Source: a virus
Taxonomy: Duplodnaviria; Caudoviricetes
IMG/VR virus record: IMGVR_UViG_3300032132_000748
DNA length: 64,000 bases
Reading direction: 5' to 3' (one strand)
Part shown: in pieces, positions 7,400-58,688 of the stretch
How positions within the stretch are numbered: the stretch's first letter is position 1
Layout of the letters: each line of letters begins with the position of its first letter
Position numbers and translations under genes: made by a program
The notes under the pieces: model-generated
Databases searched by the model: none
What the model was told of the DNA's origin: nothing
The model's input: the letters and a program-made list of their open reading frames with translations, nothing else

Positions 7400-7761
7400 A
7401 CATTGAAGATTCAAGAGCCATCGATAACGCACTCCAAGCTGCTTATCATGAAGTATATAGTGACGAATTAGGGCCAAAAACCCAAGAGAAGTTGATGGAT
7501 AAATTTTATGATCTAATTGACGCTACAGTATTTCCTGATGGTGAGAATGAACTGGACTTTGAGTCGGGAATTGAGTTAGGAATTAAACTATCTCAAAATA
7601 CAGCTCCCGGAGTTAAGTTATACAAAACAGCGTATGACCATCAGGCTTTTTACTTTGTAGGAACTGAAGACGAGATTGTTAAAAAGATAAATACAATTTT
7701 CGATTGTTGTTGCCCTACGGATGTTTTATTACGTAGTGGTTGTCAGTGTAATGGAAATTAA
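7396..7761 (+). CDS. hypothetical protein with C-terminal CxC-x8-GCxCxG module
   Basis: Ends CCCPTDVLLRSGCQCNGN*; AAGGA RBS. Confidence 0.75.
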   Translation: MNIEDSRAIDNALQAAYHEVYSDELGPKTQEKLMDKFYDLIDATVFPDGENELDFESGIELGIKLSQNTAPGVKLYKTAYDHQAFYFVGTEDEIVKKINTIFDCCCPTDVLLRSGCQCNGN

Positions 7762-8272
7762 AACTTATTCTTGCACGGGGCATCGCCCACACAAATTAAA
7801 CCAAGAGTATGATTACGATGGTCCCTGTACGAAATACGTCTACAAAGAGATATTACGTATTTTAGCTGAAGATTCTCCAGATGTCTGTATCAGTGGGATG
7901 GCTATTGGGGCAGACACCTTATTTGCTTTAGCCGCGCTAGAATTAGAAATACCATTGATTGCAGCTTTACCCTTTATCGGTCAAGAAAATCGGTGGCCAG
8001 AAAAATCTAAAAAAATATACCGTGAAATACTTAATAATCCCTTAACAACTAAAAAGGTTGTCAGTGAAGGAGGATATTCCGCGCACAAAATGCATTTAAG
8101 GGATATGTATATGGTAGATGAAGCAGATAAAGTTTTAGCTGTTTTTAATGGAACTAAGGGCGGTACTTATTACACCGTAAAGTATGCTATTAAAAATGAT
8201 GTTGATATCATCTACGTAGACCCTGACGCATGGAAAGAAAAAGATGAGGAACAGCTATCTTTATTTGACTAA
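7751..8272 (+). CDS. SLOG family (YspA/DUF1273-like) protein
   Basis: TGHRP, ISGMAIGAD, PF.GQE.RW, RD.YMVD, GGT..TV.YA; start moved to ATG 7751. Confidence 0.85.
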   Translation: MEIKTYSCTGHRPHKLNQEYDYDGPCTKYVYKEILRILAEDSPDVCISGMAIGADTLFALAALELEIPLIAALPFIGQENRWPEKSKKIYREILNNPLTTKKVVSEGGYSAHKMHLRDMYMVDEADKVLAVFNGTKGGTYYTVKYAIKNDVDIIYVDPDAWKEKDEEQLSLFD

Positions 8273-8323
8273 GTCTTGATCACTAACATCACACAAGGTA
8301 ATCTATTACTGTTAGGTGAAATT

Positions 8324-9409
8324 ATGGACCAAATGTTACTAAGGGATATTCCCGCCCAAAAAGACTTCGAAATCGCCCACTTGCTCCGAGTAAGCGGAAT
8401 GGAACTCAAAGAAACCAAGACAGGCAAACACTATTTATCTTTAGATCTTGGAGATTCCTCTAAAGAGCTCAAGTGGAATAAAAAATGGGACTCTAGTCCC
8501 GCTGAGTATGAGAAACTTAAAAGTAAAAAGGTCTTGTTCGTCACAGGTAAGACCGATGTATATAAAGACAATATGTCAATTGTCTGTGAGAGTTTAGCTG
8601 TGCCAGAAGATGGAACCGAAACAGAATTTCTAGAAGAATTAGTCCCTAGAACGGATTATGACGTCCCCTTCCTAAAAAAGGAACTTTGGAAGTATCTTAA
8701 AAGTATCAAAAATAATTACATCAGGGAGCTTTGTTTACTTTTCCTCAAGGATCCAGAGGTCAAAGAAAAACTAGCAACAAGCGTCGCTGCTGCGGGACAT
8801 CACCACGCATATAAAGGGGGGTTGATCACTCATATCGTACGCCTCATGTATCTAGCCGAAGGTGTTTGCGACGCTTTTAATAACAATATGTATCCCAACG
8901 GTAAATACAAAGTTAACAAAGATCTACTAATATTCGGTGTTTTTGTTCACGACCTATATAAAATCAGAGAATACGAGGGAACCAGCTATGCGGCGGACGG
9001 TGGCCTCGTTCCTCACCTCCCTCTTGGAGCTATCCAAGCCAATAGGTTCATGGATCGCATCGAAGATTTCCCAGAAGAGATAAGAAAACAATTAACGCAT
9101 CTCGTGCTGGCCCACCATGGACAGATTGCTTGGGGTAGTCCCTGCACACCCCTCACTGTCGAGGCAATGATATTACACCACTGTGATAATATAGCAGCCA
9201 AGGTTGATCCTATGCTTGAAGCCCTTGATGATCTTCCTGAGGGAGAAACCTGGACTGGTCGAGTTAAGGTTTGCGAGAATAAGAAAATCTATCTTGGTGG
9301 TATGTCTATACATCAATATGATGATGATAAAGTGGTAGTGAAGAACGGAAAAGTTTGCGTAAAATGCGGGGAGCTTTGCTCTTGCGAAGAAGAAACTGCT
9401 GAAAAATAA
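8324..9409 (+). CDS. YhaM/Cbf1-like OB-fold + HD-domain 3'-5' exoribonuclease
   Basis: TKTGK.YL OB-fold start, AA.GHHHAY.GGL..H, HD (VHDLYK), LAHHG..WGSP, EA.ILH..D; start at ATG 8324 after AGGTG. Confidence 0.85.
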   Translation: MDQMLLRDIPAQKDFEIAHLLRVSGMELKETKTGKHYLSLDLGDSSKELKWNKKWDSSPAEYEKLKSKKVLFVTGKTDVYKDNMSIVCESLAVPEDGTETEFLEELVPRTDYDVPFLKKELWKYLKSIKNNYIRELCLLFLKDPEVKEKLATSVAAAGHHHAYKGGLITHIVRLMYLAEGVCDAFNNNMYPNGKYKVNKDLLIFGVFVHDLYKIREYEGTSYAADGGLVPHLPLGAIQANRFMDRIEDFPEEIRKQLTHLVLAHHGQIAWGSPCTPLTVEAMILHHCDNIAAKVDPMLEALDDLPEGETWTGRVKVCENKKIYLGGMSIHQYDDDKVVVKNGKVCVKCGELCSCEEETAEK

Positions 9410-10051
9410 ATGATCGAATACACAGATCTAATACTTAAATGTAATTCGCTATTTCATAAGTTAAACGGGCGAGCACTACTACATAATATGGTTGAGGGAA
9501 ACGTCTGTTTCTCGCATCCGTTTACGGCAAGTAGTCAATTAGACGTAGATTCTCATCCTAAACGTTTCAATTTATGGAGGTTAGCTAGAAATCGAAACCA
9601 TATTATGGAAATAGGTTTCAATGCAGGACACTCCTCATTAATAATGTTGCTCTCTAATCGAGATGCTCTCCTTACTATATTTGATCTAGAAAAACATGTG
9701 TATACAAGACCATGTTTTGAATTACTTCAAAATTTCTTTCCGCACATGAGAGCACATTATGGAGATAGCAAACAAACCGTAAGTGCTTTTACTCGTGATA
9801 ACCCAAACGCCCGGTATGATCTAATTCACATAGACGGTGCTCACGAGTTTGAAACTCTTGAGCATGATTATCAAAATGCTAAGACATTATCTCATAAGGA
9901 CACTGTAATTGTTGTAGATGATACAGATGGTCCCATAGGAAAATATATTCAAGAAAAAGTATTAATGGGAGAAATAGTAATGCTCAACCGTATTGAACAT
10001 AGACTTAAAAAAACACCCCATCATATGATTTTTAAATTCAAGGGCCGATAA
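9410..10051 (+). CDS. SAM-dependent methyltransferase (Methyltransf_24-like)
   Basis: MEIGFNAGHS, GDS, YDLIHIDGAH, IVVDD. Confidence 0.85.
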   Translation: MIEYTDLILKCNSLFHKLNGRALLHNMVEGNVCFSHPFTASSQLDVDSHPKRFNLWRLARNRNHIMEIGFNAGHSSLIMLLSNRDALLTIFDLEKHVYTRPCFELLQNFFPHMRAHYGDSKQTVSAFTRDNPNARYDLIHIDGAHEFETLEHDYQNAKTLSHKDTVIVVDDTDGPIGKYIQEKVLMGEIVMLNRIEHRLKKTPHHMIFKFKGR

Positions 10052-10234: not shown

Positions 10235-10259
10235 ACACATATTGTAACAAAGGAATAAA

Positions 10260-11250: not shown

Positions 11251-11288
11251 TGTTTGATTTTACCAAATATATAGATTATTATTCACTT

Positions 11289-14225: not shown

Positions 14226-16679
14226 ATGTTCGATCGTTTTACGATAACAGCACGAAAAGTGATGCGACTGGCTCGAACCGAATGCTCAACATTTAAGCAT
14301 GGTTTCATAGGCACAGAGCATTTCCTTTTAGGATTGCTTAGGGAAGATAAAAGTATTGCAGCCGCCGTCCTCAGGACGATGGGTGTAACAGCAGACAAAG
14401 TTATCAAAGAGATTGAGATTGAGCCCTCAAATACACCACCCATGGGAGTCATCCCTTTTACCAAAAGAGCAAAACAAACTCTTGAGGCGGCTGTCGAAGA
14501 AGCGGCTCATCTACGACACAACTATATTGGCCCAGAGCACATCCTGCTAGGGCTATTAGATGACGAGAATGGTGCTGCCGTTCAAATTCTACTCAAAATG
14601 AATGTCGATATTGATGACGTAAGAAGCGAAGTACTTGAGCTTATTACAGAGACAGTGACTACGGCAGAGGATGAGGAAGAAGAAAAGACCGTAGACGCCA
14701 CCAAAAAGAAAGCAAAAGCGAAAAAAGGTAAGAGTGCTCTAGATCAGTTTGGTAGAGATCTTACAAAGTATGCTGCTGATGGAAAACTGGACCCAGTCAT
14801 TGGTCGTAAGGATGAAATAGAAAGAGTACTACTAGTCCTAGCACGTAGAAATAAGAATAATCCAATTCTTCTTGGAGAACCTGGGGTCGGAAAGACTGCC
14901 ATTGTTGAGGGTATCGCCCAACAAATCATAAACGGAAAAGCACCAGAAATGTTAGACGGTCACAGACTCATTGCATTAGACTTGGCAGCTATGGTTGCGG
15001 GCACTAAATACCGAGGCCAGTTTGAGGAAAGAATTAAAGCCGTCATGGCAGAGGCTACTAAAGAGAAAATTATTCTCTTCATTGACGAAATTCATACTCT
15101 AGTTGGGGCTGGAGGGGCTGAAGGCGCTATTGATGCAGCTAATGTCCTTAAACCAGCACTTTCTCGGGGAGAAATACGATGCATCGGAGCCACTACGCTT
15201 GATGAGTATAGAAAATCTCTAGAGAAAGATGGGGCTCTAGCGCGACGTTTCCAAAAAGTGATAGTTGACCCGCCGTCTGTAGAACAAGCAGAGCAGATTT
15301 TGCTAGGTGTGATTAATAAATATGAGGCACACCACAAAGTTAAATACTCTAAGGAAGCACTAAAGACAGCAGTAAATCTCGCTGATCGATATATCACAGC
15401 TAGATTCTTACCAGATAAAGCTCTGGACGTTATTGATGAAGCTGGTGCCAGAGTTGTTCTGGAAAAACACCGACCTAAAAAGTTGGCAGATGCAGAACTT
15501 GATCTTGAAACACTTGAGAAATCAAAAATTAATGCAGTTGCTGATCAAGAATTTGAGGAGGCTGCTTCCATCCGCGATAAAATCGAAAAGCTAGAAGAGA
15601 GTATTAAGCAACTAAAGCTTACTTGGAAACAAGAAAATAAAAAGAAACCCGTTGTTACTAAAAAATTGATCGCAAGAACAATTTCTAAAATGACGGGAAT
15701 TCCTCTCGAAAGTTTAAGTGCTTCTGAGACGGAAAAACTTCTCAAGCTAGAATCTCATCTTGGCAAAATAGTTATTGGACAAACTAAAGCCAAAGAGCAG
15801 CTTGCGAAATCTCTTCGTAAAGCCCGAGCGGGTCTTGGTGACCCAAATCGGCCAATGGGCACCTACTTATTCGTCGGACCAACTGGTGTTGGTAAAACAC
15901 TACTAGCTAAAGCTATGGCTAAGACTATTTTTGATTCGGAAGAAGCATTGATCACCATGGATATGTCTGAGTATTCAGAAAAAATCAATGTATCAAGATT
16001 GGTCGGAAGTGCCCCTGGATATGTAGGATACGAGGAAGGCGGCCAACTAACGGAGGCAGTCAGAAGAAAGCCTTATTCAGTTGTTCTTTTTGACGAAATC
16101 GAAAAAGCTCACCCGGAAGTATTTAATATTCTTCTTCAAATAATGGAAGATGGCAAGTTGACTGATTCTCAAGGAAGAAAGGTTAATTTCAAAAATACTG
16201 TTATCATACTTACTAGTAATGTTGGTAGTAGCGCTATCATAAATAAATCTTCCCTAGGTTTTGGTGGAGGTAGTGAAACGTCTGAAGAAATGATTGAAAA
16301 ACAGATAAGTGAAGATCTAAATAGAACCTTCAAACCCGAATTTTTGAATAGATTAGACGCAAAAGTTATCTTTACTCAACTAACTAAGGATGAGCTATAC
16401 GAGGTTCTGGATCTTGAACTCCATAAGGTTATTAAGAGACTCCAAGAAAAAGGCCGAACATTGGAGCTTAGTCCTGCAGCGAAAGACTTCTTACTAGATA
16501 AAGGTTACAACCCTGAATATGGCGCACGTCCGCTTAGACGTGCGGTAGGTACTTATGTTGAAGACCTTCTTGCTGAGGAAATATTAAAGGGAGCTTTCCC
16601 GGATAATGAGAAGATTCTCTTGGATAGAAATCCTGAAGATGATCACCTATTTGCCTGTAATATAGTTCTTGAAGCTTAG
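14226..16679 (+). CDS. clpC: ATP-dependent Clp protease ATPase subunit ClpC
   Basis: Double Clp-N domain, NBD1 [16 protein letters not shown]-like middle domain ([11 protein letters not shown]), NBD2 [21 protein letters not shown] ClpP-docking loop, GARPLRR. Confidence 0.96.
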
Positions 16680-17179: not shown

Positions 17180-18037
17180 ATGGCTAAGAAAAAATCAACA
17201 GAAATGGCTCTAGCAACAGTAGAATCATTGCTTCCAGCAAATATGGAGTTCGATCAACTTATTGAAAACCTAGAGGAAATGGATGAAGTCAATTTCCCTA
17301 GAATTTCGTTTAAGAATGGTCGATTTAAACTATCTAAAGACGACAAAGGAGCAGACGTACTTAAAGGTGTAATTCTTTTCCATGGTCGCCAGAACACATA
17401 TTGGGAGGGAACTTATGATCCCAACAATATCGTTCCTCCTGAGTGCTTCTCAGTGGATGGTAAGACTGGTTCTAAAGCACGAAATAGCAGCGGCCAATTC
17501 GGGTCTTGCCGTAGTTGTGCTTACAATCAGTTCGGCTCGGGTGCGGGTAAAGGCAAGGCTTGCCGCAACCAAAAGAAAGTTTACATACAGGTGCCAGGGA
17601 ACGCCGTTCCTTATACTTTGTTCTTAGCACCCACAAGTTTAACTGGTTTCAATGATGGATATATCATGAATAAGATTGTCCAAAAAGGCCACCAGTATTG
17701 GGCTGTTCTCACTACCTTTACCGCTTATCAAGAAGGTAACGACACTTACTTCAAAATATCATTCGAAGTAGATAGTTCCTTTGAGGGCGAAGAGAAAACT
17801 CAACTCAAAGAGTTGAGAGATTTCTGGATGCCAGCTATTAAAGCTGACAGAGCACAACTTGATGTTCCTGGCGGAGCAAGCAGTAGTAGCTCATCATCTT
17901 CGGAAGATGAATCCAGTGAGGAAAGCGAAGAGACTTCTACGAGAACGGTAGAAGCACGTAAACCGGCCCCCGTCTCTGCACCAGCAGCAGATGATGCTGC
18001 CAGTGATGAGATGGACGAGGAAGATCCTCCGTTCTAG
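17180..18037 (+). CDS. putative single-stranded DNA-binding/annealing protein
   Basis: Cys-containing core (C..C..NQFGS...GKAC), Ser/Glu-rich linker, acidic tail ending DEEDPPF; next to the primase. Confidence 0.7.
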   Translation: MAKKKSTEMALATVESLLPANMEFDQLIENLEEMDEVNFPRISFKNGRFKLSKDDKGADVLKGVILFHGRQNTYWEGTYDPNNIVPPECFSVDGKTGSKARNSSGQFGSCRSCAYNQFGSGAGKGKACRNQKKVYIQVPGNAVPYTLFLAPTSLTGFNDGYIMNKIVQKGHQYWAVLTTFTAYQEGNDTYFKISFEVDSSFEGEEKTQLKELRDFWMPAIKADRAQLDVPGGASSSSSSSSEDESSEESEETSTRTVEARKPAPVSAPAADDAASDEMDEEDPPF

Positions 18038-28639: not shown

Positions 28640-28834
28640 ATGTGGAAAGTGTTCAAGAAACATAAGAAAAAATGGACTAAAGTTGAAGAACAAAAACTAC
28701 TTCAATTATTAGACGGATTAGTTGAAGATCTTGAAAAAGACGAAGACGAAGAAGACGAAGAAGATGAGGATAAGGAATGCTCCTGTTCGATTGCCGAGTT
28801 AATGAAAAAGGGGTGTCAATGTGGGGGTGTATGA
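28640..28834 (+). CDS. small acidic protein with C-terminal CxC-x8-GCxCxG module
   Basis: Ends CSCSIAELMKKGCQCGGV*; AGGAG RBS; lies between nrdB and nrdA. Confidence 0.75.
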   Translation: MWKVFKKHKKKWTKVEEQKLLQLLDGLVEDLEKDEDEEDEEDEDKECSCSIAELMKKGCQCGGV

Positions 28835-35737: not shown

Positions 35738-36088
35738 ATGATGCCAAAAATAGGTAACAGTTACAATTTAAGCCTCCCAAAAATCATTAATGATGAAGGG
35801 CTATTAGCAGATCTTGATAACCAAGAACTGTGCCCTACGGATTTAGATCATCAAATCTGGGACTCATCAGTGACCGGAAAACCCGTTAAAGTTTATGACC
35901 TAATGGTAGGATTTCCCGAAGGGAGAGCTTATGCCCTAGTCAATTTTGACGAGCCTTGGCAAACCTTGTCTTCCTTCGATATCATGGTTCCCATACAGTG
36001 GCTATCTGAAATCCCTTCGCCCATCAAATTATGCTCTTGTGATATGGCTGTGATAATAGCCAGAGGATGTCAGTGTGGCGGATCGTAG
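35738..36088 (+). CDS. hypothetical protein with C-terminal CxC-x8-GCxCxG module
   Basis: Ends CSCDMAVIIARGCQCGGS*. Confidence 0.7.
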   Translation: MMPKIGNSYNLSLPKIINDEGLLADLDNQELCPTDLDHQIWDSSVTGKPVKVYDLMVGFPEGRAYALVNFDEPWQTLSSFDIMVPIQWLSEIPSPIKLCSCDMAVIIARGCQCGGS

Positions 36089-36293
36089 AAATGCTGTTAT
36101 AGACTTTAAGGGAACAATATATGCCATATCTAAAGGTGTGGTATACCAATTTATTGAACATGATTGGCTTGTAATAGAAACTCTTCCAGAGGGACTTTTC
36201 GTTAAAAACAAAAATGAATTATGGCTAAAGACACCCTGTAACTGTGACACCAAAGTTCTTTTCGCCAAAGGCTGTCAGTGCAATGGATGTTGA
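36075..36293 (+). CDS. hypothetical protein with C-terminal CxC-x8-GCxCxG module
   Basis: Ends CNCDTKVLFAKGCQCNGC*; GTG start inside the motif of the upstream gene, AGAGGA RBS. Confidence 0.7.
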   Translation: MADRRNAVIDFKGTIYAISKGVVYQFIEHDWLVIETLPEGLFVKNKNELWLKTPCNCDTKVLFAKGCQCNGC

Positions 36294-42136: not shown

Positions 42137-43726
42137 CTATCCAAGTACTGTTTTAGTGTGTTCTTTTCCATCGAAGGTCCATCGAACCGATGAGCGATTA
42201 TTGTTATCGTCATCCTCAAAGGTGTCAATGTGAACGGGTCGCCTCCAAATCTTGAAGAGATTTTCCAGCGTATCCTTACCCTTTGTCGGGTCAAGCTCTA
42301 TCTGCTGGTCTTCGAATACGTGACGCATACGAAGCTCTCCTCTATGGGCGTGGTCCGCATTCTCGACCTGAATAACAGGTTGACCTCCATTAACAAGTAA
42401 CCGCAAGAAGTGATCTTTTACGTCGGTGAAATCCCTGGTGACTTCATCGTAACCGAATCGGTTTGGCTTGTAAGAGAACAACCGCTGCTCACGGCAAAAC
42501 TCTTCAGTCAAATATGTTTCGATAAACGTAACGTCGTTATGGCTTTGCCTGACTTTGAAAAGTTCAGCCTTTCCAAGACCTAATTTACGATCCCAGTTGG
42601 ACTTCTCCTCCATCGAGGTGCAACGCTCATACTCAGGACCAAATTGTCCCTTGTTCCACCGCTCCTCAATATTACGGTATAAAGCAAGACCAAGTCGGTA
42701 AGGGTTGATCGATTGTCCTTGAGCAATAGCCCTTGATTGGCTATCGCAGTAGTCAACAATTTCTGCGTCTGTGGCGAGCCGAGCGTCTGCATCACGACCA
42801 GTCATGAATTTCTGGTGGATAAACGTGGCCCAGCCCTCGTTCATTATCTTTGTCATTCTCTGAGGAGCAAAGTAATAAGCTTCCTCGCGAACCATCGCCA
42901 GAATATCTCGTTTCCATTGTTCATCTGCATGGAATTTTGCATTATTGACCAAGAACCCGAGAATATCTCTATCTGGGTTTACTGGCAACTTCTTGCGCTT
43001 ACTCTTATCATCAGCACGTTTTCTACGCTGAACTTCAAGGAATTCAGGAGTGTTGATGTAGCGATCCATGTAGGAATTAGCTTTAAGGCGTGGTAGCGGT
43101 TTCGCTTCCTCTTCCTCAGTAACCGGATCATCTTGTCGCTTAATGAGCGACATATAGGGATCAATCAAGTTTTCAAGTGACAGACAAACGTCTAACCAGT
43201 TTTCAACCTCCGAAGCCCCATGACGGTTCATAAATCGCTGAACACGACTGGCATTGTTAGCCATTTGATCAAGCATGTAGCGATCTGTAGGCCCGAACCA
43301 AGCGTTATTTCTGAAGAAATCAGCGTGCCCACAAACGTGGATCATAACTAATTTCTGCTCAACAAGAGTGTTAGTGCTCAAAAGATAGGCAATAACAGGA
43401 TTGGTGTTAATAACTAGTTCGTAGATTTTAGCGGCACCGTAGACATATTTACGGTGGAGGCTCTCAAAATCCATTCCGTAGGTCCAGTGGGACATACGAC
43501 GAGGAAAGCCTGTGTAGGCAGCAATACCATTTAGTTCTTTTGGCGTGACCTGTAAGAACTTGATTGGATCGAAGGTAAGACCATAATCCTCTGCAATTCC
43601 AAAAATCTTTTTTGCATGTTTTCTGAGATCAGCAGGCAATTCCCTATTCGGGAAACCCCTAACTGAGTTTTGGTAAACTACGGGCTTTTCATCCGTAGGC
43701 TTTGCTTTTGCTTTATGACCTGCCAT
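42137..43726 (-). CDS. spoVR: SpoVR/YcgB family protein
   Basis: G.P.R..HW.YG, KIYELVIN.NP..AYL, HV.GH.DFF.NN, YF.PQ..TKIMNEGWAT, NPY.LG; AGGAG RBS. Confidence 0.95.
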   Translation of the reverse strand: MAGHKAKAKPTDEKPVVYQNSVRGFPNRELPADLRKHAKKIFGIAEDYGLTFDPIKFLQVTPKELNGIAAYTGFPRRMSHWTYGMDFESLHRKYVYGAAKIYELVINTNPVIAYLLSTNTLVEQKLVMIHVCGHADFFRNNAWFGPTDRYMLDQMANNASRVQRFMNRHGASEVENWLDVCLSLENLIDPYMSLIKRQDDPVTEEEEAKPLPRLKANSYMDRYINTPEFLEVQRRKRADDKSKRKKLPVNPDRDILGFLVNNAKFHADEQWKRDILAMVREEAYYFAPQRMTKIMNEGWATFIHQKFMTGRDADARLATDAEIVDYCDSQSRAIAQGQSINPYRLGLALYRNIEERWNKGQFGPEYERCTSMEEKSNWDRKLGLGKAELFKVRQSHNDVTFIETYLTEEFCREQRLFSYKPNRFGYDEVTRDFTDVKDHFLRLLVNGGQPVIQVENADHAHRGELRMRHVFEDQQIELDPTKGKDTLENLFKIWRRPVHIDTFEDDDNNNRSSVRWTFDGKEHTKTVLG

Positions 43727-43766
43727 TGTAATCTCCTCTACGCCAAGTCTGCTAACTTAGGTTATT

Positions 43767-43797
43767 ACCTGTGACCGGGTAAATCCCGGCCACAGGT
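43767..43797 (-). promoter_or_regulatory. stable intergenic hairpin between prkA and spoVR
   Basis: Minus strand ACCTGTGGCCGGG-ATTTA-CCCGGTCACAGGT: 13-bp stem with one G-U, no U-tract. Confidence 0.6.
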
Positions 43798-43816
43798 CAG
43801 GGTGTAACGTTAGACG

Positions 43817-45886
43817 TTACTGGTTGGCGGGGTCGCCACGGACAAAGACACTCGCGACGTAGTTAAGCACGTCTCGTGATGACTCGTCGTTGTAGCCATA
43901 GGTATCTATGAGCCGCTGGCGAACAACCTCAATCTGCTTCTGAGTATCAGCGTCAACCACATCGGTCATCAACGTGTTAAGGTTGATCGTGTTTTTGCTG
44001 TCCTCGAAGAGTTTCAGTTCCAAAGCCTTCTGCAAACGCTCGTTGTTCCAGTATTCGAACTTCTTACCGTCAACAGCAAGAGCACCAATGTAGTTCATCA
44101 ACTCGCGGCGGAAATCATCCTTACGGGAGGCAGGAATATCGATTTTCTCTTCGATAGAGCGCATGAGCTGCTCATCCGGCTCTTCTTCCTGGCCCGTGTA
44201 TTTGTTGCGAATACGTTCACGCTGGCAGAACGCCTTAACGTTGTCAACGTAGTTAGCACAAAGTCGCGCAATTGCTTCTTCGTCCGCACAGATAGCACGC
44301 TGAACCTCGTTCTTAACGATATCAGTGTACTCTTCTTCCACATCAGCCAGGAGTGCTTCGTACTTCTGACGCTGATCCTTGTTAACAAGGGCGTGGTTCT
44401 TCAACCCGTCACGAATCTCATTCATAAGAATGAATGCGTTGACGTGACTGTATTTATCAGTCGAAAGCGCGGCTGAAAGCTTGTCCTGAATGAAGCGAGG
44501 GCTAATACCCTCCATACCTTCTCTCAGTTCCTTACCTTCATCTCGAAGCTCTTGAACGTTATCGATGGTGTAACCGGGGAGGGTTTTACCGTCGTAAAGC
44601 TTAAGCTTCTGCATCAACGTGATATTGCTGTCACGGGGATCTTTAAGACGAGTCAAGATTGCCCACATAGCTGCGATTGTTATCGTATGCGGCGCAATGT
44701 GCTTCGGAGGTGCCGAGAAATCTCGCTTGTAGATTCGCTCTTCCTCAGTAAGCTCCAAGTTGTAAGCGATATCAACCTTAATGGTTCTATCCTTGAAAGC
44801 TTCCATCAACTCGTCATTCTGGAGCTTCTTGTATTCCGGGTTGTTCGTGTGACCGAGGATGACTTCGTCAATATCGGTTTGTGCGAACTTACGCGGCTTG
44901 ATTTGCTTTTCCTGCGTAGCAGTGAGCAAGTCATACAAGAAAGCGGTTTCCAGCTTCAGCAACTCGATGAATTCGATCATGCCGCGATTAGCAACGTTGA
45001 ATTCTCCGTCGAAGTTGAATGCACGAGGATCACTGTCCGAACCGTAGATGGCAATCTTACGGTAATTGATATCACCTGTAAGTTCTGTCGCATCCTGGCT
45101 CTTTTCGTCCTTCGGCTGGTAAGTTCCGATACCCATACGGTCTTTTTCGGAGATAATCATCCGCTTAACGCGGAAGTATTTCTGAATGACCGCCTGCCAG
45201 TCGCCGTTTTCTCGCTCTAAGAAGATAGAGAAGTATTTACGACTAGCCGGATCAAGTGTTCCCTTGTGGGCAACAATCGGATAAGCGGTTTTCACTCCAG
45301 CAAAGAGTTCATCAACAAACGCTTGTCGAACCTCTGAGGGAATGAGTTTGAGAGGCTCTTCGTGCATCGGTGAATCGATCCACTCCTCTTCACCCGCAGC
45401 CGCGTCTGGATCCTTAATCTGGAAGGTGAAAAGACGACCAGCATCAGAACGTGAGTAACGCTCCAAGCCTCGCTTCAAAAGACGAGCGATTGTTGACTTT
45501 GCGGAGCCAACAGGTCCGTGCATAAGAAGAATACGGCGCTCAACACCATAACCCTCTGCACCCGCCTTGAGCAACTCAACCAGCTTATTAAGCTCTGAGT
45601 CAATACCGAATACGGCGTCCTTACCATTACCTTCTTCGTCGTCGAAGAATTTCCAGCGACGGAAAGTCTCTCGATGACGCTCGTAGTCCTCGTGCCCGTG
45701 AGACACGATCATATCGTAGAGCCGCTGATAAGCATTTCTTGCGATACCTGGATCACCGCGCAACATATCGAGATACTCGATAAAGGTGCAAACCTGATTC
45801 AGTTCTTTAAACTGCTCGGTCAGCGAAAATTTCTTCATCAAACCTGCGGCTGACCCTACAGATTTGGCTGCTTTCGCTTTAGCCAT
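43817..45886 (-). CDS. prkA: PrkA/YeaG family AAA+ protein (canonical copy)
   Basis: HGPVGSAKST, P.HEEPL.LIP, PKDEKSQD..ELTG, SD.DPRAF..DGE...ANRG..EF.E.LK, H.N..E, EAF.DR; start at ATG 45886 after GAGGA. Confidence 0.95.
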   Translation of the reverse strand: MAKAKAAKSVGSAAGLMKKFSLTEQFKELNQVCTFIEYLDMLRGDPGIARNAYQRLYDMIVSHGHEDYERHRETFRRWKFFDDEEGNGKDAVFGIDSELNKLVELLKAGAEGYGVERRILLMHGPVGSAKSTIARLLKRGLERYSRSDAGRLFTFQIKDPDAAAGEEEWIDSPMHEEPLKLIPSEVRQAFVDELFAGVKTAYPIVAHKGTLDPASRKYFSIFLERENGDWQAVIQKYFRVKRMIISEKDRMGIGTYQPKDEKSQDATELTGDINYRKIAIYGSDSDPRAFNFDGEFNVANRGMIEFIELLKLETAFLYDLLTATQEKQIKPRKFAQTDIDEVILGHTNNPEYKKLQNDELMEAFKDRTIKVDIAYNLELTEEERIYKRDFSAPPKHIAPHTITIAAMWAILTRLKDPRDSNITLMQKLKLYDGKTLPGYTIDNVQELRDEGKELREGMEGISPRFIQDKLSAALSTDKYSHVNAFILMNEIRDGLKNHALVNKDQRQKYEALLADVEEEYTDIVKNEVQRAICADEEAIARLCANYVDNVKAFCQRERIRNKYTGQEEEPDEQLMRSIEEKIDIPASRKDDFRRELMNYIGALAVDGKKFEYWNNERLQKALELKLFEDSKNTINLNTLMTDVVDADTQKQIEVVRQRLIDTYGYNDESSRDVLNYVASVFVRGDPANQ

Positions 45887-45899
45887 GGATAGTCCTCTC

Positions 45900-48236
45900 T
45901 TATTCCTCTTCAGTTCTGATAAGGAAAACAACTGCTTCCTTAAGGGATTCTAACGTGTAGCCCAGCGCTAACATGTTATTAACTGTTTTCTCGACAGTTT
46001 TTGCATGATCTGCCGGGACCACCAGTTTCCAATCTTCAGTATCCCACTTGGGAATTGAATTTTGGATTTTTTTCAATTGATCTCGCTGTTCCGTATCACT
46101 GTTTCTGCGTAGCGCATCAAGTAGATCTGAGAATAGCGTTTTGTAGGGAGGAAGCTGGCCCTTACCCAATTTATCTGAGTGTTTAGTTGCCCAAGCACCA
46201 AGCTTGCTAAAGAGAGCTTTACGACGATCCTTGAATTCGGATTTGTCGATACCCATCTTCTCTTCAACAGAGCGCATCAGGAGTTCGTTCGGGGGCTCAT
46301 ACTTTCCAGTTTGAGAGTTTTTAATCTTCTCATTCTGGGTCCAGGCTTTAACGCTATCAATGTAGCGAATAAAGAGTTCCTCGTATTGATCTTCTGAGAT
46401 CAACCCTGCAGCACTTCTTAGGTCTTGACGAAGCATTCTACAGTAGAATTCCTTTACTTCACCTAGGATTTTATCGGGAGCCAAGAAGCCCTTTTCGTAT
46501 TTAGAACCCTCATCGTTACCTTCGTGCAACTTAGTGAATTCATAGATACTCTTGTTTTCAATCACACCTTCGATGGTTTGAAACAAGGCCATAGGCGAAA
46601 GGTAGCGACGACGACGGTTGGTGTTAATAACTATCGTTTCCACGTCTCGATAAGAAGCACCACTTCGACCCTCATAGGAGGCGTCATCTATGCCACCACC
46701 CTGAACTGGAATAATACGATCACGAGTGTTTGCATACTCATTAGCAATATGCTTAAGATCTCGTTCCAGAGCATTACGATTCTTTTGAGACCAGGTGGGC
46801 GGACCACAACCTGTATCGTAGAGGTATGCCTTCTCTGTTCCTGTCAACTTCGATCCCATAGAATCTTCTGAACGCCGCAGACGAGTTAATACTGTCCACA
46901 AAGCAAGTATGCTCTTTGTGTGAGGAGCAATATGCGTCTTCGAGAGAGCTTCTTCAAGAGGAGCAGCTTCGTCGATAGTAATCGCGTGCTCATCCAAAAT
47001 TAACCCACAAGTTTCCTTAACATTACTCCATTGAAGCAAGTAAGGGACTTTAACGTAGACAAACCGACCATTAAACGAAGGCCAATCCGGGTGACGCTTG
47101 AATTTACTCAAGGTCTTTTCATTGTCCGTCGCAAAGATTACGCAATCAAGTTGGGCTGTGAAACCTGGCAGGTTAATTGTGCCCCACTCAGCAGTGTTGA
47201 GGAGGTATTTGTTCTCATCAGGGTGACGTTTAAAGATTTCACCATACTCAACGATGCCTCGGTTGGAATCAACAAGGTCGCCGTAAGGCTGGTGCATTGA
47301 TGCCATAGCAAGAGCGCGAGGAATACGGTAACTCTTCTCTAGTGTTAACTCACGAGAATGGGCGTCACCATTTCGGCAAGGATCAATTGATATAAGACCT
47401 TTACGGAATAACTTAGAGAAGTAAAACCGCTCGATTTGGACGTGACGAATTACCTTAGTCCAATCACCACCATTAGAAACAAGAAGCTGGCGAAAGATTT
47501 CTTTACTCTTTTGGCTCAACTCAGCTTCGTAAAGCGGGTGTGGTTGGGGAACTTTCAAAGCCCGGAGAAGCTTGGCACGCTCAGGAATAGGAATAAGCAG
47601 TAGAGGATTATCTTTCATGCTTGAAGGCAGCTTGAAAGTAACGTCCTCGGGATCTGTATGAGCAAGGGTATCGCTGTTGTAATCCTCGTTCTTACCTTGT
47701 CCCTTTGCAAAACCTAAAGCTTTTTCTTTCTCACCTACGTCGGAGAAAAGCCAGTTGAACGTATAAACGGCACCTTGGGGAAGTTTTGAGTATTCCTCTA
47801 CTGCCAACATGATGGAAGCGTTTAGGGAAGTCTTAGCCGAACCATTAGGTCCGTGCAAAAGAATGATTTTGTTTACACGGTTCTTAGCGAAAGAAGAAAC
47901 GTAGTTGTAAATCTGGTTTTGAGCAAACTCTTGACCGAAAACAGGGAAGAAACGATCAAAGATAGACCATCTTCTTACCATCTCTCCGGTTATTGCTCTT
48001 ACTTCATAATGACCAAAGTGATCAAAAACGTCCTTAAGGTATTGTGCCGAGCTTCGGCAATACTTCTCTGGCTCAGCTTTAACTGAGGCAATAAATTCTT
48101 GAAACGATTTAATCGTTTGATTTGTTTCAAAGCGATTCTTAATCGCGACAGAAACATTCTCCAAAACCCAATCTTCGGGCTCCGTTTGGATTTCAAAATC
48201 GTCGGCTGCTGTTGGTTTTTGACGCCTTGCCATCAC
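45900..48236 (-). CDS. prkA: PrkA/YeaG family AAA+ protein (divergent copy)
   Basis: LLHGPNGSAKT, DNPLLLIP, GDLVDSNRG..EY.E..K, V.VPY.L, HIAPH, EG..G.S.R, PNE.LMRSVE. Confidence 0.85.
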   Translation of the reverse strand: MMARRQKPTAADDFEIQTEPEDWVLENVSVAIKNRFETNQTIKSFQEFIASVKAEPEKYCRSSAQYLKDVFDHFGHYEVRAITGEMVRRWSIFDRFFPVFGQEFAQNQIYNYVSSFAKNRVNKIILLHGPNGSAKTSLNASIMLAVEEYSKLPQGAVYTFNWLFSDVGEKEKALGFAKGQGKNEDYNSDTLAHTDPEDVTFKLPSSMKDNPLLLIPIPERAKLLRALKVPQPHPLYEAELSQKSKEIFRQLLVSNGGDWTKVIRHVQIERFYFSKLFRKGLISIDPCRNGDAHSRELTLEKSYRIPRALAMASMHQPYGDLVDSNRGIVEYGEIFKRHPDENKYLLNTAEWGTINLPGFTAQLDCVIFATDNEKTLSKFKRHPDWPSFNGRFVYVKVPYLLQWSNVKETCGLILDEHAITIDEAAPLEEALSKTHIAPHTKSILALWTVLTRLRRSEDSMGSKLTGTEKAYLYDTGCGPPTWSQKNRNALERDLKHIANEYANTRDRIIPVQGGGIDDASYEGRSGASYRDVETIVINTNRRRRYLSPMALFQTIEGVIENKSIYEFTKLHEGNDEGSKYEKGFLAPDKILGEVKEFYCRMLRQDLRSAAGLISEDQYEELFIRYIDSVKAWTQNEKIKNSQTGKYEPPNELLMRSVEEKMGIDKSEFKDRRKALFSKLGAWATKHSDKLGKGQLPPYKTLFSDLLDALRRNSDTEQRDQLKKIQNSIPKWDTEDWKLVVPADHAKTVEKTVNNMLALGYTLESLKEAVVFLIRTEEE

Positions 48237-49320: not shown

Positions 49321-50997
49321 TTAAAGCAGCCCAGCGCTAAAATCGCGAACGATCTTAGGAGTGGCGGTATCGAAGCCAACAATATCTAGCATACCCGGAT
49401 CTTTTGGATCGGCAATGCTGAACTTGGTTGGAGTCATAGCAAGAACAACAAGTCTAGCTGGGATGCCAGTCTTATCACGATACCTTTGGAGAGCTTGAAC
49501 TGGGTGTCCAGTCTTCCCTGCGCTATTACCTCTACGGCCCCAATATCCTCCGCCAGGTTTTCCATCGTACCAGGTTTCGTTATCGGTTAGGACAACGAAA
49601 GTATCGATTTCAATACCCCTTTCTGCTGCATATACCATAGGCAACGCGCAGTTAGTAGCACCGAAAGGAATGCCAGACATCTTTTTGATAACAGCACCGA
49701 GACTATCCTTCTTGGACAAGCCAAGATCGACAAAGTCGTGACTGAAACCCATAGCAAGTGACTTACGCTCTGTACGATAAATCGTCATAGCCAAAGCCGC
49801 CGCACCAATCCGAGGAGTGATGCCGGTCATACCTGCTAATTCTGGACCACCCATTGAACCACTAACATCGACGCCCAAAAGGAATCGTTTGTTTGCTGGT
49901 TCAACATTTTCGAATGAAGCGTAGAACGCCTCATCCAAAGAATCCATAATATCTGGAATCACTTCCCAGGTCTTCTTACCCTTAACACCTCGGCCACGAC
50001 CGTAGGTATTGATTGCTACAAGAACATTCAATGGGTGGATACGAGCTTTCTTAAGTGCTTCACGATTAGTTAAGCGCTCTTGAACTAGTTGCAGGTTATC
50101 CCAACCACCTTTCTTTAGAACCCCGTTAGAAGACAAGCTACCGAGGTTTCTAATAAGAGCAGTCATACCCAAAGATGGAAGCATAGCTTCCCATACTTTT
50201 GGAGTACGCAGATTGGTTGGGATGCATTCCCAAGGAAGCTTAAATTCTTCGACTAAGCGAATTACTTCTGCTTCACTGCCTGCACGTTTTGCTCGCTCAA
50301 AGGCCCAGATTTTACGTAGACCTTCTACCTGAGGAACTGTTTCAGGAAGACCCCCTCCTTCGTTACCTTTGATAATCCATCGGTAAATAAGGCTCTTTTC
50401 CTCATCATTAGTTTTAATGTGAGAAAGACGGAAAATATCTCGGTGAGACCATCCATTACGCTGCTGATACTTAGTAACTTGGTGCGCAAGTTCCCTTGGG
50501 CTCTTATCATTGTACCAACGGTTGAAAGCTTTGCTCACAGCTTTGGACCAACCACGAAGGGCTCGAATGTTTGAAGCAAATGCGAATAGATGTGTACCTA
50601 TACGCGCAACTTTTGGCATCTCTTTGAATGCGTAAGACTTAGTCTCTGCATCGCCCATGCTTGCAGCTAAGGCAAGAACGAACAAAGCAGCATCATTCCT
50701 AGGAGCACGACCTCCCTGAGAAATTTTAACAACTTCGTTTACAACACGCTTACCGTCAGCTTTAATGCAAGCTAGAACGTTTGTAGCATTTTCTTTAGTC
50801 AGCTTTGCTTCACCTACATAGTAGGTTCCGCCTTCTGATCCGAGAATCAAGAAGCGATGTAGCTGTGACCATTTATCAACGACAAAAGAGAAACCTCCTG
50901 CGTTGTTCTTTTCCTGGTTTGTACCAAGAATCTTTTCGCTTTGTGGGGTTTTTTCTCCACGACGTGCGCGCGTCTTGATGTGATCTGTGTATTTCAT
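49321..50997 (-). CDS. rsr: Ro60/Rsr TROVE-domain RNA-binding protein
   Basis: N.AGG.SF...W..L.RFLILGSEGGTYY, KY.QRNGWSHRD..RLSH, ALIRNL, ARIHP, vWA DVSGSM, TDNET, DP.MLD.VGFD; start ATG 50997 after GGAGG. Confidence 0.95.
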   Translation of the reverse strand: MKYTDHIKTRARRGEKTPQSEKILGTNQEKNNAGGFSFVVDKWSQLHRFLILGSEGGTYYVGEAKLTKENATNVLACIKADGKRVVNEVVKISQGGRAPRNDAALFVLALAASMGDAETKSYAFKEMPKVARIGTHLFAFASNIRALRGWSKAVSKAFNRWYNDKSPRELAHQVTKYQQRNGWSHRDIFRLSHIKTNDEEKSLIYRWIIKGNEGGGLPETVPQVEGLRKIWAFERAKRAGSEAEVIRLVEEFKLPWECIPTNLRTPKVWEAMLPSLGMTALIRNLGSLSSNGVLKKGGWDNLQLVQERLTNREALKKARIHPLNVLVAINTYGRGRGVKGKKTWEVIPDIMDSLDEAFYASFENVEPANKRFLLGVDVSGSMGGPELAGMTGITPRIGAAALAMTIYRTERKSLAMGFSHDFVDLGLSKKDSLGAVIKKMSGIPFGATNCALPMVYAAERGIEIDTFVVLTDNETWYDGKPGGGYWGRRGNSAGKTGHPVQALQRYRDKTGIPARLVVLAMTPTKFSIADPKDPGMLDIVGFDTATPKIVRDFSAGLL

Positions 50998-51080
50998 GGT
51001 TAAACCTCCATTTAACTTGTATACAACCAAATACGGATGAGAGCCCTCTGGCTGTCAAAAGAAATAAGGTCTTGGGATCT

Positions 51081-52024: not shown

Positions 52025-52151
52025 TTGATTATGAATCGGGAACTTTTGGGCCATTTCTACAGCTTATCTTCTTTTATGCTCCAAAATTACTATTTAGTGG
52101 AACACATCACGCTCCTTGGGCTTGTGGTGTGCTATTTATTATAGGTGGGAT

Positions 52152-53525
52152 ATGCAACAAAACCAAAAAGATCGCGAGCCGAAAAACTCAGATCTAAAAC
52201 TTATTGAAAAAGAAAAAATTACCGATCAGATCCAACCTGATGATATGCTCTCGGTATACATGCGGCAGATGGGAAAAATCCCACTCCTTAGCCGCCCTAT
52301 AGAATTACATTTAGCAAAAAAAATCGACCATTTTCGACAAGGAGGCAGGACATTGATCCTGTCTTTTAGTCCTTTCTTTCATGAAGCTGTAGATTTAATT
52401 GATGGGGTGATACAAGGTAAGAACGCCGTGGACCGCACCTTAAAAATTAAAGATACATCCACCTTGTATGAATACGCAACAAGAAAAGAAGAATTACGAG
52501 AGAAATTAAAAGCAAATGTAGGAGAGATTTACACAACTAGCAGTCGAATTCTACTACACACTAATCCTAAAATAATAAGCTCTTATGTGAAACAAGGAGT
52601 TTCTCTTCTCGAAGATTGCGGGCTGCAAATTAAGTTCATCCATAAAATGTATAGAAGATTAATGGAGGTCACTAGAGATTCTTTTTCTGAGAGTGGCTTT
52701 AGGCTTTCTTGGAAAGAATTTGTAAAACGACGACAACTCACAAAATTATTATTTGATGTTTACGAGGATGCAAAGCAGGATTTGGCTAATGGTAATTTAC
52801 GTTTAGTTGTAAGTATTGCTAAGAAATATAGAAATAGCCAGGTCTCCTTTTTAGATATTATTCAAGAAGGTAACGCAGGATTAATGCGGGCTGTTGAGAA
52901 ATATGAATTCAGAAGAGGCTTTAAATTTTCAACATATGCTACTTGGTGGATTAGACAAAGTATAACTAGAAGTTTAAGCGACTCCTCCCGCGTTATTCGA
53001 TTACCTGTTCACATAGTAGAGCAACTCAGTAAAATTGAGAAAGCAGTTAGGAAACTCAGCCAAGAGTCTAATAACGACCCTACACCAGAACAAATAGTTA
53101 ACGAAGTAAGGGTAAACTTCAAACATCCAGATTTTTCATTAAATGATTACTATAGAATACAGAAAGTAGCAAATAGCCCTGTTTCCCTCGATAAGCCAGT
53201 TTCTGGTGATGCAGAAGAAAGTCTTTTTGGTGATCTTTTGGAAGATAAGAGCAACGAGAGTCCCGTACAGCTTGCAGCTAAAAACATGCTCAAAGAGAGA
53301 CTCCTATTAACCATAGACAGTCTTTCTGCCAGAGAAAGAGAAATCATTAAGCTTCGATTTGGTCTTGGTGATGGATATATTTATACACTAGAAGAGGTGG
53401 GTAAAATTTTCAAGGTAACCAGAGAAAGAGTTCGTCAAATTGAAGCCAAGGCTCTGAGAAAGCTTAGACATCCGAGTAGATGTAAAGATTTAGAGAGTTT
53501 CGTGGATAAAAAACAAACCACATAA
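52152..53525 (+). CDS. rpoD: RNA polymerase sigma-70 factor (RpoD-like, lacking region 1.1)
   Basis: Region 1.2 D..SVYMRQMGKIPLLS, region 2 NLRLVVSIAKKY...GFKFSTYATWWIRQSI, region 4 TLEEVGKIFKVTRERVRQIEAKALRKLRHP. Confidence 0.95.
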   Translation: MQQNQKDREPKNSDLKLIEKEKITDQIQPDDMLSVYMRQMGKIPLLSRPIELHLAKKIDHFRQGGRTLILSFSPFFHEAVDLIDGVIQGKNAVDRTLKIKDTSTLYEYATRKEELREKLKANVGEIYTTSSRILLHTNPKIISSYVKQGVSLLEDCGLQIKFIHKMYRRLMEVTRDSFSESGFRLSWKEFVKRRQLTKLLFDVYEDAKQDLANGNLRLVVSIAKKYRNSQVSFLDIIQEGNAGLMRAVEKYEFRRGFKFSTYATWWIRQSITRSLSDSSRVIRLPVHIVEQLSKIEKAVRKLSQESNNDPTPEQIVNEVRVNFKHPDFSLNDYYRIQKVANSPVSLDKPVSGDAEESLFGDLLEDKSNESPVQLAAKNMLKERLLLTIDSLSAREREIIKLRFGLGDGYIYTLEEVGKIFKVTRERVRQIEAKALRKLRHPSRCKDLESFVDKKQTT

Positions 53526-55498: not shown

Positions 55499-55506
55499 GA
55501 GGAGTC

Positions 55507-55851: not shown

Positions 55852-56021
55852 TGAAACATTGTAGGTGGTGTTCTTTATGTTCTCCTGGGGGGAGATGCGC
55901 TGACTGGATTGTTAGCGGCGGAGAGAGTTTTTGTTGCATCAGATGCTATGAAAGATTTACAGAAGAGCACGGCCAAGCTAAGAATATACTTAGAAAACTT
56001 TTAAGACACAGATGCAAATAA
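55851..56021 (+). CDS. small Cys-rich protein (not in ORF track)
   Basis: MKHCRWCSLC...FCCIRCYERF...; coupled by TAATG overlap. Confidence 0.45.
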   Translation: MKHCRWCSLCSPGGRCADWIVSGGESFCCIRCYERFTEEHGQAKNILRKLLRHRCK

Positions 56022-56407
56022 TATCAACAGGATCAGGACCTTTTAAGGGGGATAAAACCTTTACTATGGTTCTCCCCGCAGGAACGTGGAACATTATTGG
56101 CGGGATTCAGGTCAATAGCACTGCGAGATCCTCGGGAAGAATTTCCATCCAAGAGCACCTGCACCGAACTCAAGGTGCTCGAAGGTTTCAATGGTATACA
56201 CGAAAGCGCGGGATACAGCATTTCACCCCAGGGTTTGTTTTACATCTAGATAAAGATACCATAATTGATATTAGGTTTGAAACAACGGGAGGTAGCCCAG
56301 AACTTGAAACGTATATTAGTTGCACTTTTTTGGCGGAGACAAAGCAAAAATGCAACTGCGATATGCAACTACTAATAGCACAAGGATGTAAATGTGGTGG
56401 AACGTAA
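56012..56407 (+). CDS. hypothetical protein with C-terminal CxC-x8-GCxCxG module
   Basis: Ends CNCDMQLLIAQGCKCGGT*. Confidence 0.7.
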   Translation: MQIISTGSGPFKGDKTFTMVLPAGTWNIIGGIQVNSTARSSGRISIQEHLHRTQGARRFQWYTRKRGIQHFTPGFVLHLDKDTIIDIRFETTGGSPELETYISCTFLAETKQKCNCDMQLLIAQGCKCGGT

Positions 56408-56678
56408 AAAAGCCTTAGACGAATACTTACTAGAACATATAGAAGATTATCAAAGAGCTACAATCGTATATGACATTGATGGCCCAATAGGTATCAGTGA
56501 AAGCGACAACGCTTGGATATCTTTATTAGCAGCCCAAGATAGGCATGATGATACACGAGATTTATCGTGGATTAATATATCTGAATTGAATACAGCAATT
56601 GCTTTACGAGAAGCCCTTGACCGGTTTATAGCCAAAAAAGAGAAAGAACGATGCCAGAAGGCCCAGAATGCCAATTAG
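56394..56678 (+). CDS. hypothetical protein
   Basis: GTG start inside the upstream Cys motif, AAGGA RBS. Confidence 0.55.
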   Translation: MVERKKALDEYLLEHIEDYQRATIVYDIDGPIGISESDNAWISLLAAQDRHDDTRDLSWINISELNTAIALREALDRFIAKKEKERCQKAQNAN

Positions 56679-57493: not shown

Positions 57494-57500
57494 GTAACAT

Positions 57501-58391
57501 ATGCAAAAACACGAAGAATTCCAATACTTAGAGCTACTAGCCGATATAATGAACAACGGTGTAGACAAAGGTGATCGAACCGGCACCGGAAATCGATACG
57601 TCTTTTCAAGACACATGCGATTCTCTTTGCGCGATCAGTTCCCGATTCTAACTACTAAACGTGTTTACTGGCGAGGAATTGTTGAGGAATTGTTGTTCTT
57701 TCTTCGAGGGGATACCAATAGTCTCCATCTCGAAGAGAAGAAAGTAAATATCTGGAAAGGTAACACTCGACGAGAATTCCTAGACAACAAAGGTCTGAAT
57801 ATGCTACCGGAGGGTGATATAGGAACTTCCTACTCCCATCAATGGCGCAATTTTTCAGGAGAACATCCTCTTATCCCAGAAACAAAAGGGATGAAAGGGT
57901 TTGATCAAGTTAAATACGTTCTAGAAATGCTTAAAACCAACCCACTTGACCGAAGAATGATTATTAGCGGATGGAACCCTGCGCAGTTGAAGTATATGTC
58001 GCTCCCTCCTTGCCACCTGGTTTACCTGTTCAACGTTAATCCAGAGACTAATGAGCTAAATTGTCATATGACGCAACGTAGTTGTGATACCTTTTTAGGC
58101 GTGCCCTTCAACTTAAGTTCAATGGCATTAATGACTTATCTTTTTGCAGAAGTTTCTGGCTTTAAGCCGGGAGAGATAAGCTGGCTCGGGGTAGACGTTC
58201 ATCTCTACAAAGATCATATCGAGTCAGGAGTTGTCACCGAACAGGTGATGAGAGATCCTCGATCCTTCCCAACACTAAACATCAAAAAAGAACTTAACTC
58301 TCTTGAAGACATCGAAGCTCTCACTTATGAAGATTTAGAGTTAGTAGGCTACAAACCACACAAAAAACTTAAAGCCAAAATGGCTGTATAG
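57501..58391 (+). CDS. thyA: thymidylate synthase
   Basis: DRTGTG, PILTTKRV, EELLFF, RR.I..WNP, LPPCH, QRS.D.FLGVPFN, D.HLY. Confidence 0.96.
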   Translation: MQKHEEFQYLELLADIMNNGVDKGDRTGTGNRYVFSRHMRFSLRDQFPILTTKRVYWRGIVEELLFFLRGDTNSLHLEEKKVNIWKGNTRREFLDNKGLNMLPEGDIGTSYSHQWRNFSGEHPLIPETKGMKGFDQVKYVLEMLKTNPLDRRMIISGWNPAQLKYMSLPPCHLVYLFNVNPETNELNCHMTQRSCDTFLGVPFNLSSMALMTYLFAEVSGFKPGEISWLGVDVHLYKDHIESGVVTEQVMRDPRSFPTLNIKKELNSLEDIEALTYEDLELVGYKPHKKLKAKMAV

Positions 58392-58400
58392 GAGAATATT

Positions 58401-58688
58401 ATGTCATGCTACTACCCACCTAATTGGAAAAACAATTCTATAAAACAACTTCACGAAGAGATCAAACAGATACTCGCTTATGAGCCTCCGCGATATATGA
58501 CAAATTTTGGATCTAATCTATGGAAAACGCACACACCTGTTGTAATTAACGTTAATTTTGATGCTATAGGAAAAAATACTGCATATGATTTTAAAACCAT
58601 CAAAGTTGAAAATTTCTTCAAACCACGTAAATGCTCCTGTAAAACACAAACACTAATGGCCTGTGGTTGTCAGTGTGGTGGTGTCTAA
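58401..58688 (+). CDS. hypothetical protein with C-terminal CxC-x8-GCxCxG module
   Basis: Ends CSCKTQTLMACGCQCGGV*; AGGAG RBS. Confidence 0.75.
   Translation: MSCYYPPNWKNNSIKQLHEEIKQILAYEPPRYMTNFGSNLWKTHTPVVINVNFDAIGKNTAYDFKTIKVENFFKPRKCSCKTQTLMACGCQCGGV

Follow-up and report, generated by a model that had tools for sequence, protein, structure and literature searches.

A portable four-cysteine tag on diverse proteins of uncultured phages

Six open reading frames (ORFs) in a 64,000-nucleotide stretch of viral DNA (Duplodnaviria; Caudoviricetes; IMG/VR record IMGVR_UViG_3300032132_000748), here called the window, close with the same four-cysteine module, CxC-x8-GCxC-x-G-x-stop, which raises the question of what one short ending could do for proteins whose N-terminal bodies do not resemble one another. 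The module, which we call the tag, defines a genuine and large family of phage mini-domains that so far lacks a name: it is portable, selected as a peptide, restricted to phages within the collections searched, and carried by diverse soluble proteins. Its role may be that of a metal-stabilised helical handle by which varied binding domains dock on one, probably host, partner, a reading that we hold to be about as apt to prove right as wrong. The six tagged ORFs of the window are as follows.

7396..7761, + strand: acidic body plus tag, 121 aa (tag 7705-7761); overlaps the start of the YspA/SLOG gene
28640..28834, + strand: 64-aa ORF between nrdB and nrdA (tag 28778-28834); AGGAG ribosome-binding site upstream
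35738..36088, + strand: 116-aa ORF directly 3' of polA (tag 36032-36088); the longest start, TTG at 35720, gives 122 aa
36075..36293, + strand: 72-aa ORF with a GTG start (tag 36237-36293)
56012..56407, + strand: 131-aa ORF, two genes before fpg (tag 56351-56407)
58401..58688, + strand: 95-aa ORF directly 3' of thyA (tag 58632-58688); AGGAG ribosome-binding site upstream

An earlier note on this DNA had given the positions of the six motifs, and these proved exact, each on the + strand with 18 residues from the first Cys to the stop; the neighbours that it had named (nrdB/nrdA, polA, ClpC, thyA and fpg) were all identified, and its remark that the N-terminal bodies are mutually dissimilar agrees with our comparison of the six, which gave no match. 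Searches of the six proteins against Pfam (E≤1), PHROG and NCBIfam found no family. Within the window, a six-frame search of its whole length showed CxC-x7..11-CxC to be absent outside the six tags, and the DNA pattern for CxC-x8-GCxC was observed 6 times, compared with 0.01 expected from dinucleotide shuffles. The tagged ORFs (64-131 aa) are packed among co-oriented neighbours, with clear Shine-Dalgarno sites in three of the six, and the GTG start and Shine-Dalgarno-like site of the ORF at 36075 sit within the tag of the preceding gene. The gene at 7396 has four orthologues (39-61% identity), all of which keep both body and tag, while the ORF at 28640 is laid out as a basic start, a predicted helix, an acidic run and the tag. 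The window is part of an 859-kb contig (858,992 bp; ENA ERZ27248692 k141_839137), of which about 94 kb were covered; four more tagged genes lie ~13-15 kb upstream of the window (L349:4421-6836), where they share a block of small genes that follows an ornithine carbamoyltransferase-family gene, which brings the total on the contig to ten.

To what extent does the tag occur elsewhere? The motif turned up in pattern scans of IMG/VR contigs and of metagenome DNA, in the latter on more than 113 stretches, and a profile of 130 tails matched 1,353 protein clusters (50% identity) at E≤1e-3, which bears out the idea of a portable C-terminal four-cysteine module on unrelated proteins. Among the best 150 of these 1,353 matches, the motif lies no more than 24 residues from the C-terminus in all 150, the protein ends exactly three residues past the last Cys in 143, nearly all as GG-x (the form of tail on which the profile was trained), and tandem double tags are present in three proteins (P0026, P0062 and P0106). 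The phages with the tag are mutually unrelated, range from 37 to 938 kb in length and from 27 to 68% in guanine-plus-cytosine (GC) content, and comprise phages of 37-90 kb, whose capsid protein resembles its Silvanigrella phage counterpart, phages of 120-170 kb, jumbo phages of 370-390 kb, and megaphages. Copy number per genome runs from one to at least ten, and in metagenome stretches tagged genes also form arrays of up to eight consecutive members. A GTDB scan, whose pattern demanded a GG-type tail and K/Q and covers that subtype only, returned 17 matches, 16 of them chance-like and one real, on a phage-like contig in an NC10 metagenome-assembled genome; among cultured phages and plasmids, tblastn with these short and insensitive queries gave no real match besides the uncultured phage LR756511.

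The tag itself found no family in Pfam, PHROG or NCBIfam, in line with the earlier note, which had not recognised it as a named domain, and 147 relatives were without a Pfam match at E≤0.001. A PDB sequence search with the tag profile gave nothing at E≤10, feature searches in the Atlas gave no usable match or unnamed viral clusters only, and literature searches for the motif found no relevant paper or description. The confinement of the tag to uncultured phages, including some of the largest known phage contigs (595-938 kb), may explain the missing name. More than 1,300 unannotated protein clusters share the tag, so that finding out what one 18-residue peptide binds could offer a way into the whole set.

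To define the conserved unit, the first scan patterns, which demanded a Gly-rich end, were replaced by a scan without any tail requirement. In this tail-blind scan the GG-x end was found in 9 of 24 distinct matches, and the remaining matches have short unrelated tails or a charged extension, with a few tags internal; across the family, tags are sometimes internal or close to the N-terminus. Gly-Gly is present in 7 of the 10 tags of the window genome, and the GG-x end in none of nine tags on two contigs from a low-GC sample. The spacer is x8 in most proteins, x9 in at least six and x7 in one. Together, the tail-blind ends and the variable spacers identify a 15-residue core as the true unit, the fixed x-G-x end being a trait of particular lineages; the invariant spacing and one-residue tail described earlier hold for all ten tags of this genome but not for the family as a whole. 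All 293 aligned cores are CxC-x8-G-CxC, in which the first CxC leads through an N-cap residue into a modelled amphipathic helix of 7 residues, closed by a C-capping Gly ahead of the second CxC; in most cases a short end with Gly comes after this. Hydrophobic residues occupy core positions 5, 8 and 9 in 77%, 100% and 99% of the 293 tags (the search itself fixed part of this), position 4, which resembles a helix N-cap, is D/S/P/E in most tags, position 12 is Gly in all, and the K/Q between the last cysteines is strongly conserved across unrelated phages. A scan for a His-ligand variant gave two matches, both outside plausible ORFs.

Selection acts on the peptide, with synonymous sites free. At fourfold sites the third codon position holds no more than 0.17 bit of information, compared with ~2 bits at fixed first and second positions (some codon positions being fixed by the search pattern), and there is no conservation past the stop codon of tagged genes; the earlier claim of selection on the peptide is thereby confirmed, and a DNA repeat is rejected because the wobble positions are free. 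Bodies and tags are both under purifying selection, with a pooled ratio of nonsynonymous to synonymous substitution rates of ~0.22 for each (synonymous sites are saturated in several pairs). Promoter and terminator scans remained at chance level. The AlphaFold model of the tag, which is metal-free, is a loop-helix-loop (CxC-helix-G-CxC) with a predicted local distance difference test score of 93-94 and one helix, and thus places a small predicted helix between the two CxC pairs. With the 30-residue tag model, a query too small to be informative, fold searches of pdb and pdb_via_wide came back empty and the Atlas yielded weak rows only.

The proteins that carry the tag are varied, the 305 bodies falling into 220 BLAST clusters. 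A membrane-like segment was found in 2 of 305 bodies versus 288 of 2,778 background ORFs (a background that includes spurious frames), and KOW-like starts in 13 versus 18 of the same sets, a ~6-fold enrichment. In an eight-gene tandem array (L149:10833-13333), most members are an SH3/KOW barrel plus tag; a full-length model from this array puts the tag on a low-confidence flexible linker behind the barrel, and the fold search gave Z scores of 5.4-6.8, with top rows mostly SH3/KOW. MORN_2-repeat bodies form arrays on five stretches (L138, L147, L156, L173 and L188), and the near-identical tags within them indicate recent duplication or gene conversion. KOW motifs were recognized in two tagged bodies and a tail-collar domain in one; P0026 and P0062, of 634 and 692 aa, combine KOW motifs with two tandem C-terminal tags.

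Three known systems resemble the tag. In SecA, the C-terminal metal-binding domain (CXCX8CH) contacts SecB and ribosomes, and the same module is also present on YecA and YchJ (bioRxiv 10.1101/613315). Like this SEC-C domain (Pfam PF02810), the tag is a C-terminal module of about 20 residues that starts with CxC and sits behind a flexible linker on unrelated proteins; SEC-C takes up a single metal ion and attaches to a common partner, and by analogy may be the best model of how the tag works. However, in SEC-C (CXCX8C[HC]) the last two ligands are neighbours, a Ser is conserved and the core is basic/aromatic, whereas the tag is CxC-x9-CxC with a hydrophobic helix, and SEC-C is cellular, whereas the tag occurs almost only on phage-type DNA; none of the 293 cores has the SEC-C ligand spacing, and no Pfam match to it was obtained. 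The SWIM zinc finger (Pfam PF04434) is described by CXC...Xn...CXHXXA (PMC6316741). It acts in protein interaction and shares with the tag two C-x-ligand pairs around a short helical spacer. In many SWIM domains this spacer has 9 residues. In the tag, on the other hand, the fourth ligand is always Cys, the first CxC is preceded by no conserved beta strands, and the position is C-terminal; the CxH ligand pair is absent, as is any Pfam match to SWIM. Finally, the CxCxxxxCxC tail of Enterococcus hirae CopY binds Zn(II) or Cu(I) and drives dimerisation (PMC12648655). It too places two CxC pairs at the extreme C-terminus, but its spacer is 4 residues long, it has no helix and it belongs to one DNA-binding repressor family, while the tag has a spacer of 9 (rarely 8 or 10) and unrelated bodies.

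Based on the four invariant cysteines, arranged in two pairs on cytoplasmic proteins, the tag very probably binds metal. We propose that a single metal ion, probably Zn and possibly Fe or Cu, is bound jointly by both CxC pairs, and that it would fix the helix in a position from which the hydrophobic face can dock on one common partner; whether the stripe does dock on a common host partner we regard as an evenly balanced matter. The partner would be a conserved host machine, with a protease or unfoldase, the ribosome, RNA polymerase or a membrane site as candidates, and the varied N-terminal bodies would be interchangeable target-binding parts, in the manner of substrate adaptors. If the tag is such a common docking handle, phages would be putting many accessory proteins to work through one and the same short interface, and the tag might also be adapted as a compact, genetically encoded tool for recruitment or metal binding.

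The search for a partner gave mainly negative results. Across 113 lineages, no conserved neighbour recurred beyond common replication genes, so that a functional tie to the DNA-metabolism neighbours listed in the earlier note is not supported. No protein family was common to all 21 tagged genomes (at BLAST-level sensitivity, with several records incomplete); the most widely spread families reach 10-11 genomes, and the top ones resemble ordinary replication proteins. Because no phage gene travels with the tag, any partner is probably host-derived, or else the tag acts alone. Several points weigh against the docking handle. No co-inherited gene points to its partner in either of these comparisons; the fold model contains no metal; most bodies have no known fold, and the term "binding module" therefore rests on a minority (SH3/KOW, MORN and CxxC-containing); the hosts seem to span several phyla, judging from a Planctomycetota-like sigma factor and a Silvanigrella phage-like capsid, which would call for a very conserved partner; and the hydrophobic stripe could equally well pack against a second tag.

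A more far-reaching form of the docking handle, which we offer tentatively as a minority possibility, is that the tag could be the docking element of a phage-wide, undescribed adaptor system, in which unrelated phages of several host phyla bring targets to one conserved bacterial machine, for example a protease. The interchangeable domains would then be SH3/KOW barrels, MORN repeats and hundreds of unknown folds, and the system might be a bacterial counterpart of viral F-box adaptors. Eukaryotic virus substrate adaptors combine ankyrin or MORN repeats with an F-box-like tail. The likeness lies in a variable binding domain with a short conserved docking element, expanded in arrays; the sequence is different and the host is bacterial, and the comparison is an analogy only.

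The main rival to the docking handle is that the tag serves for metal-driven self-association, into homo- or hetero-oligomers, or as a stabilising, protease-resistant end for small labile proteins, which we judge possible, if rather doubtful. The C-terminal CxCxxxxCxC peptide of CopY alone suffices for metal-driven dimerisation (PMC12648655), three proteins (P0026, P0062 and P0106) have two tags in tandem, and self-association, needing no partner gene, fits both the null partner searches and the genomes with a single copy. On the other hand, a three-residue hydrophobic stripe and conservation of the K/Q exceed what a generic stabiliser needs, and the CopY motif is without such a helix. Alternatively, the tag could be a degron or timing signal for a host protease, controlling turnover of accessory proteins and possibly metal- or redox-dependent. 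Its place at or near the C-terminus of small soluble proteins, and the lack of need for a phage partner, are consistent with this idea; however, the length of the tail and its last residue vary freely and certain tags sit inside the protein or close to its N-terminus, and we consider it unlikely. Typical C-terminal degrons are not so variable in tail or position.

Less likely again is a phage-encoded partner. The earlier note had suggested the phage ClpC, HslV-like protease, MoxR/vWA or PrkA proteins, or a virion packaging receptor, and the first of these candidates is as follows.

14226..16679, + strand: ClpC-type AAA+ ATPase with Clp_N, two AAA domains and UVR

In favour of such a partner, the window genome and the 595-kb uncultured phage LR756511 both have MoxR-like, vWA, SpoVR and PrkA genes (PrkA at 49% identity) together with several tags, and one tagged protein has a tail-collar domain. 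As a general receptor these proteins fail, since among nine other records homologues of the window ClpC, MoxR-like, vWA, SpoVR and PrkA occur in LR756511 and in none of the other eight, and a homologue of the HslV-like gene in none of the nine. Near-complete tagged phages of 77-170 kb are without homologues of the candidate genes, and the widest family, as noted, covers 11 of the 21 tagged genomes. The window proteins labelled HslV-like and MoxR in the earlier note gave no Pfam match at 1e-5, and a PDB sequence search with the HslV-like protein gave no match.

That the tag buffers or senses metal or redox state, in the manner of a metallothionein or a disulphide relay (e.g., for ribonucleotide reductase), with the cargo secondary, is quite improbable. 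The four invariant cysteines would suit it, one copy lies between nrdB and nrdA, and ribonucleotide reductase is among the most widely shared genes; yet half of the 21 tagged records, including phages of 37-39 kb, have no ribonucleotide reductase homologue (some of these records being incomplete), the bodies are themselves under selection, and a conserved hydrophobic stripe would be superfluous in a buffer.

Even less credence attaches to the proposal that GG-x is a ubiquitin- or ThiS-like precursor end, trimmed by one residue and conjugated. The commonest tag tail, Gly-Gly plus one free residue, does recall ubiquitin-like and ThiS-MoaD proteins, and the 143 of 150 best profile matches that end three residues past the last Cys would fit, subject to the training of that profile on GG-x. 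However, GG-x is dispensable, as seen from the 9 of 24 tail-blind matches and the 3 of 10 window-genome copies without Gly-Gly, and the Gly-Gly stands directly behind the last presumed metal ligand. No Ubl family match was found and no beta-grasp fold, the tag being modelled as loop-helix-loop and one full-length body as an SH3/KOW barrel. E1 and JAB genes do not travel with the tag, although host-encoded enzymes are conceivable: ThiF and JAB are each present in one of ten records (LR756511) and in none of the four near-complete IMG/VR records, which are small phages, the window genome being represented by its ~94 kb only. LR756511, the sole tagged record with both genes, has four tags, none of them GG-x. 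With homologues of the candidate receptors, ThiF and JAB confined to LR756511 and GG-x dispensable, neither the proposed phage receptors nor ubiquitin-like processing is likely to account for the family. In LR756511 the ThiF (E1-like) and JAB genes are close together (L275:7616-8269 and 9065-9541), with no obvious adjoining ubiquitin-like gene.

A DNA or RNA signal misread as protein, such as a recombination site or the Shine-Dalgarno site of the next gene, is refuted as the main explanation by the use of all 16 Gly-Gly codon pairs, the free wobble positions and the lack of conservation beyond the stop, while secondary use as a ribosome-binding site remains, with GGA at the first terminal Gly in 40% versus 29% of background and the next start ≤15 nt away for half of the tagged genes. 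Two other candidates were rejected: for CaaX prenylation, the Cys is fourth from the end in one subtype only and the host is bacterial; for a sliding-clamp motif, the tag has no Gln at the expected place.

The 859-kb contig is a probable megaphage, an assignment made with no capsid or terminase gene identified in the ~94 kb covered, where genes are tightly packed, many of the ORFs are small, and genes for replication and nucleotide functions, EF-Tu and a sigma factor are present. The sigma factor offers a clue to the host through its closest bacterial relatives.

52116..53525, + strand: RpoD-like sigma factor

Its closest source-named bacterial relatives are mostly Phycisphaerae/Planctomycetota RpoD proteins (42-46%), a kinship that points weakly to a Planctomycetota host. 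Its clade takes in 938-kb and 600-kb contigs, on which the relatives are 70-72% identical and tagged genes are present too; this points to a clade of very large phages whose hosts are perhaps Planctomycetota.

Other genes of the contig are of separate interest. Two PrkA-type genes stand in tandem with SpoVR, accompanied by a TROVE/Ro60 gene and a full-length EF-Tu gene; the PrkA/SpoVR block is common to the window contig and LR756511.

42137-48236, - strand: PrkA-type and SpoVR genes
49321-51030, - strand: TROVE/Ro60 gene
59130-60326: EF-Tu gene

The YspA/SLOG protein (window 7721-8272) ends in QLSLFD, presumably a beta-clamp-binding-like motif, and a beta clamp of the phage's own is encoded ~10 kb downstream of the window (L351:3962-5077). 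Two window proteins (17180-18037 and 24641-26173), one of them the MoxR-like ATPase, end in an acidic run and PPF, like the C-terminal tip of bacterial single-stranded-DNA-binding protein. An HNH endonuclease gene lies directly 3' of nrdA (window 31421-32014). Three genes, 1043, 1762 and 2404 (window 240-4298 and L348:931-9996), share an N-terminal domain without a Pfam match; they come after a 3,021-aa protein and possibly encode virion proteins.

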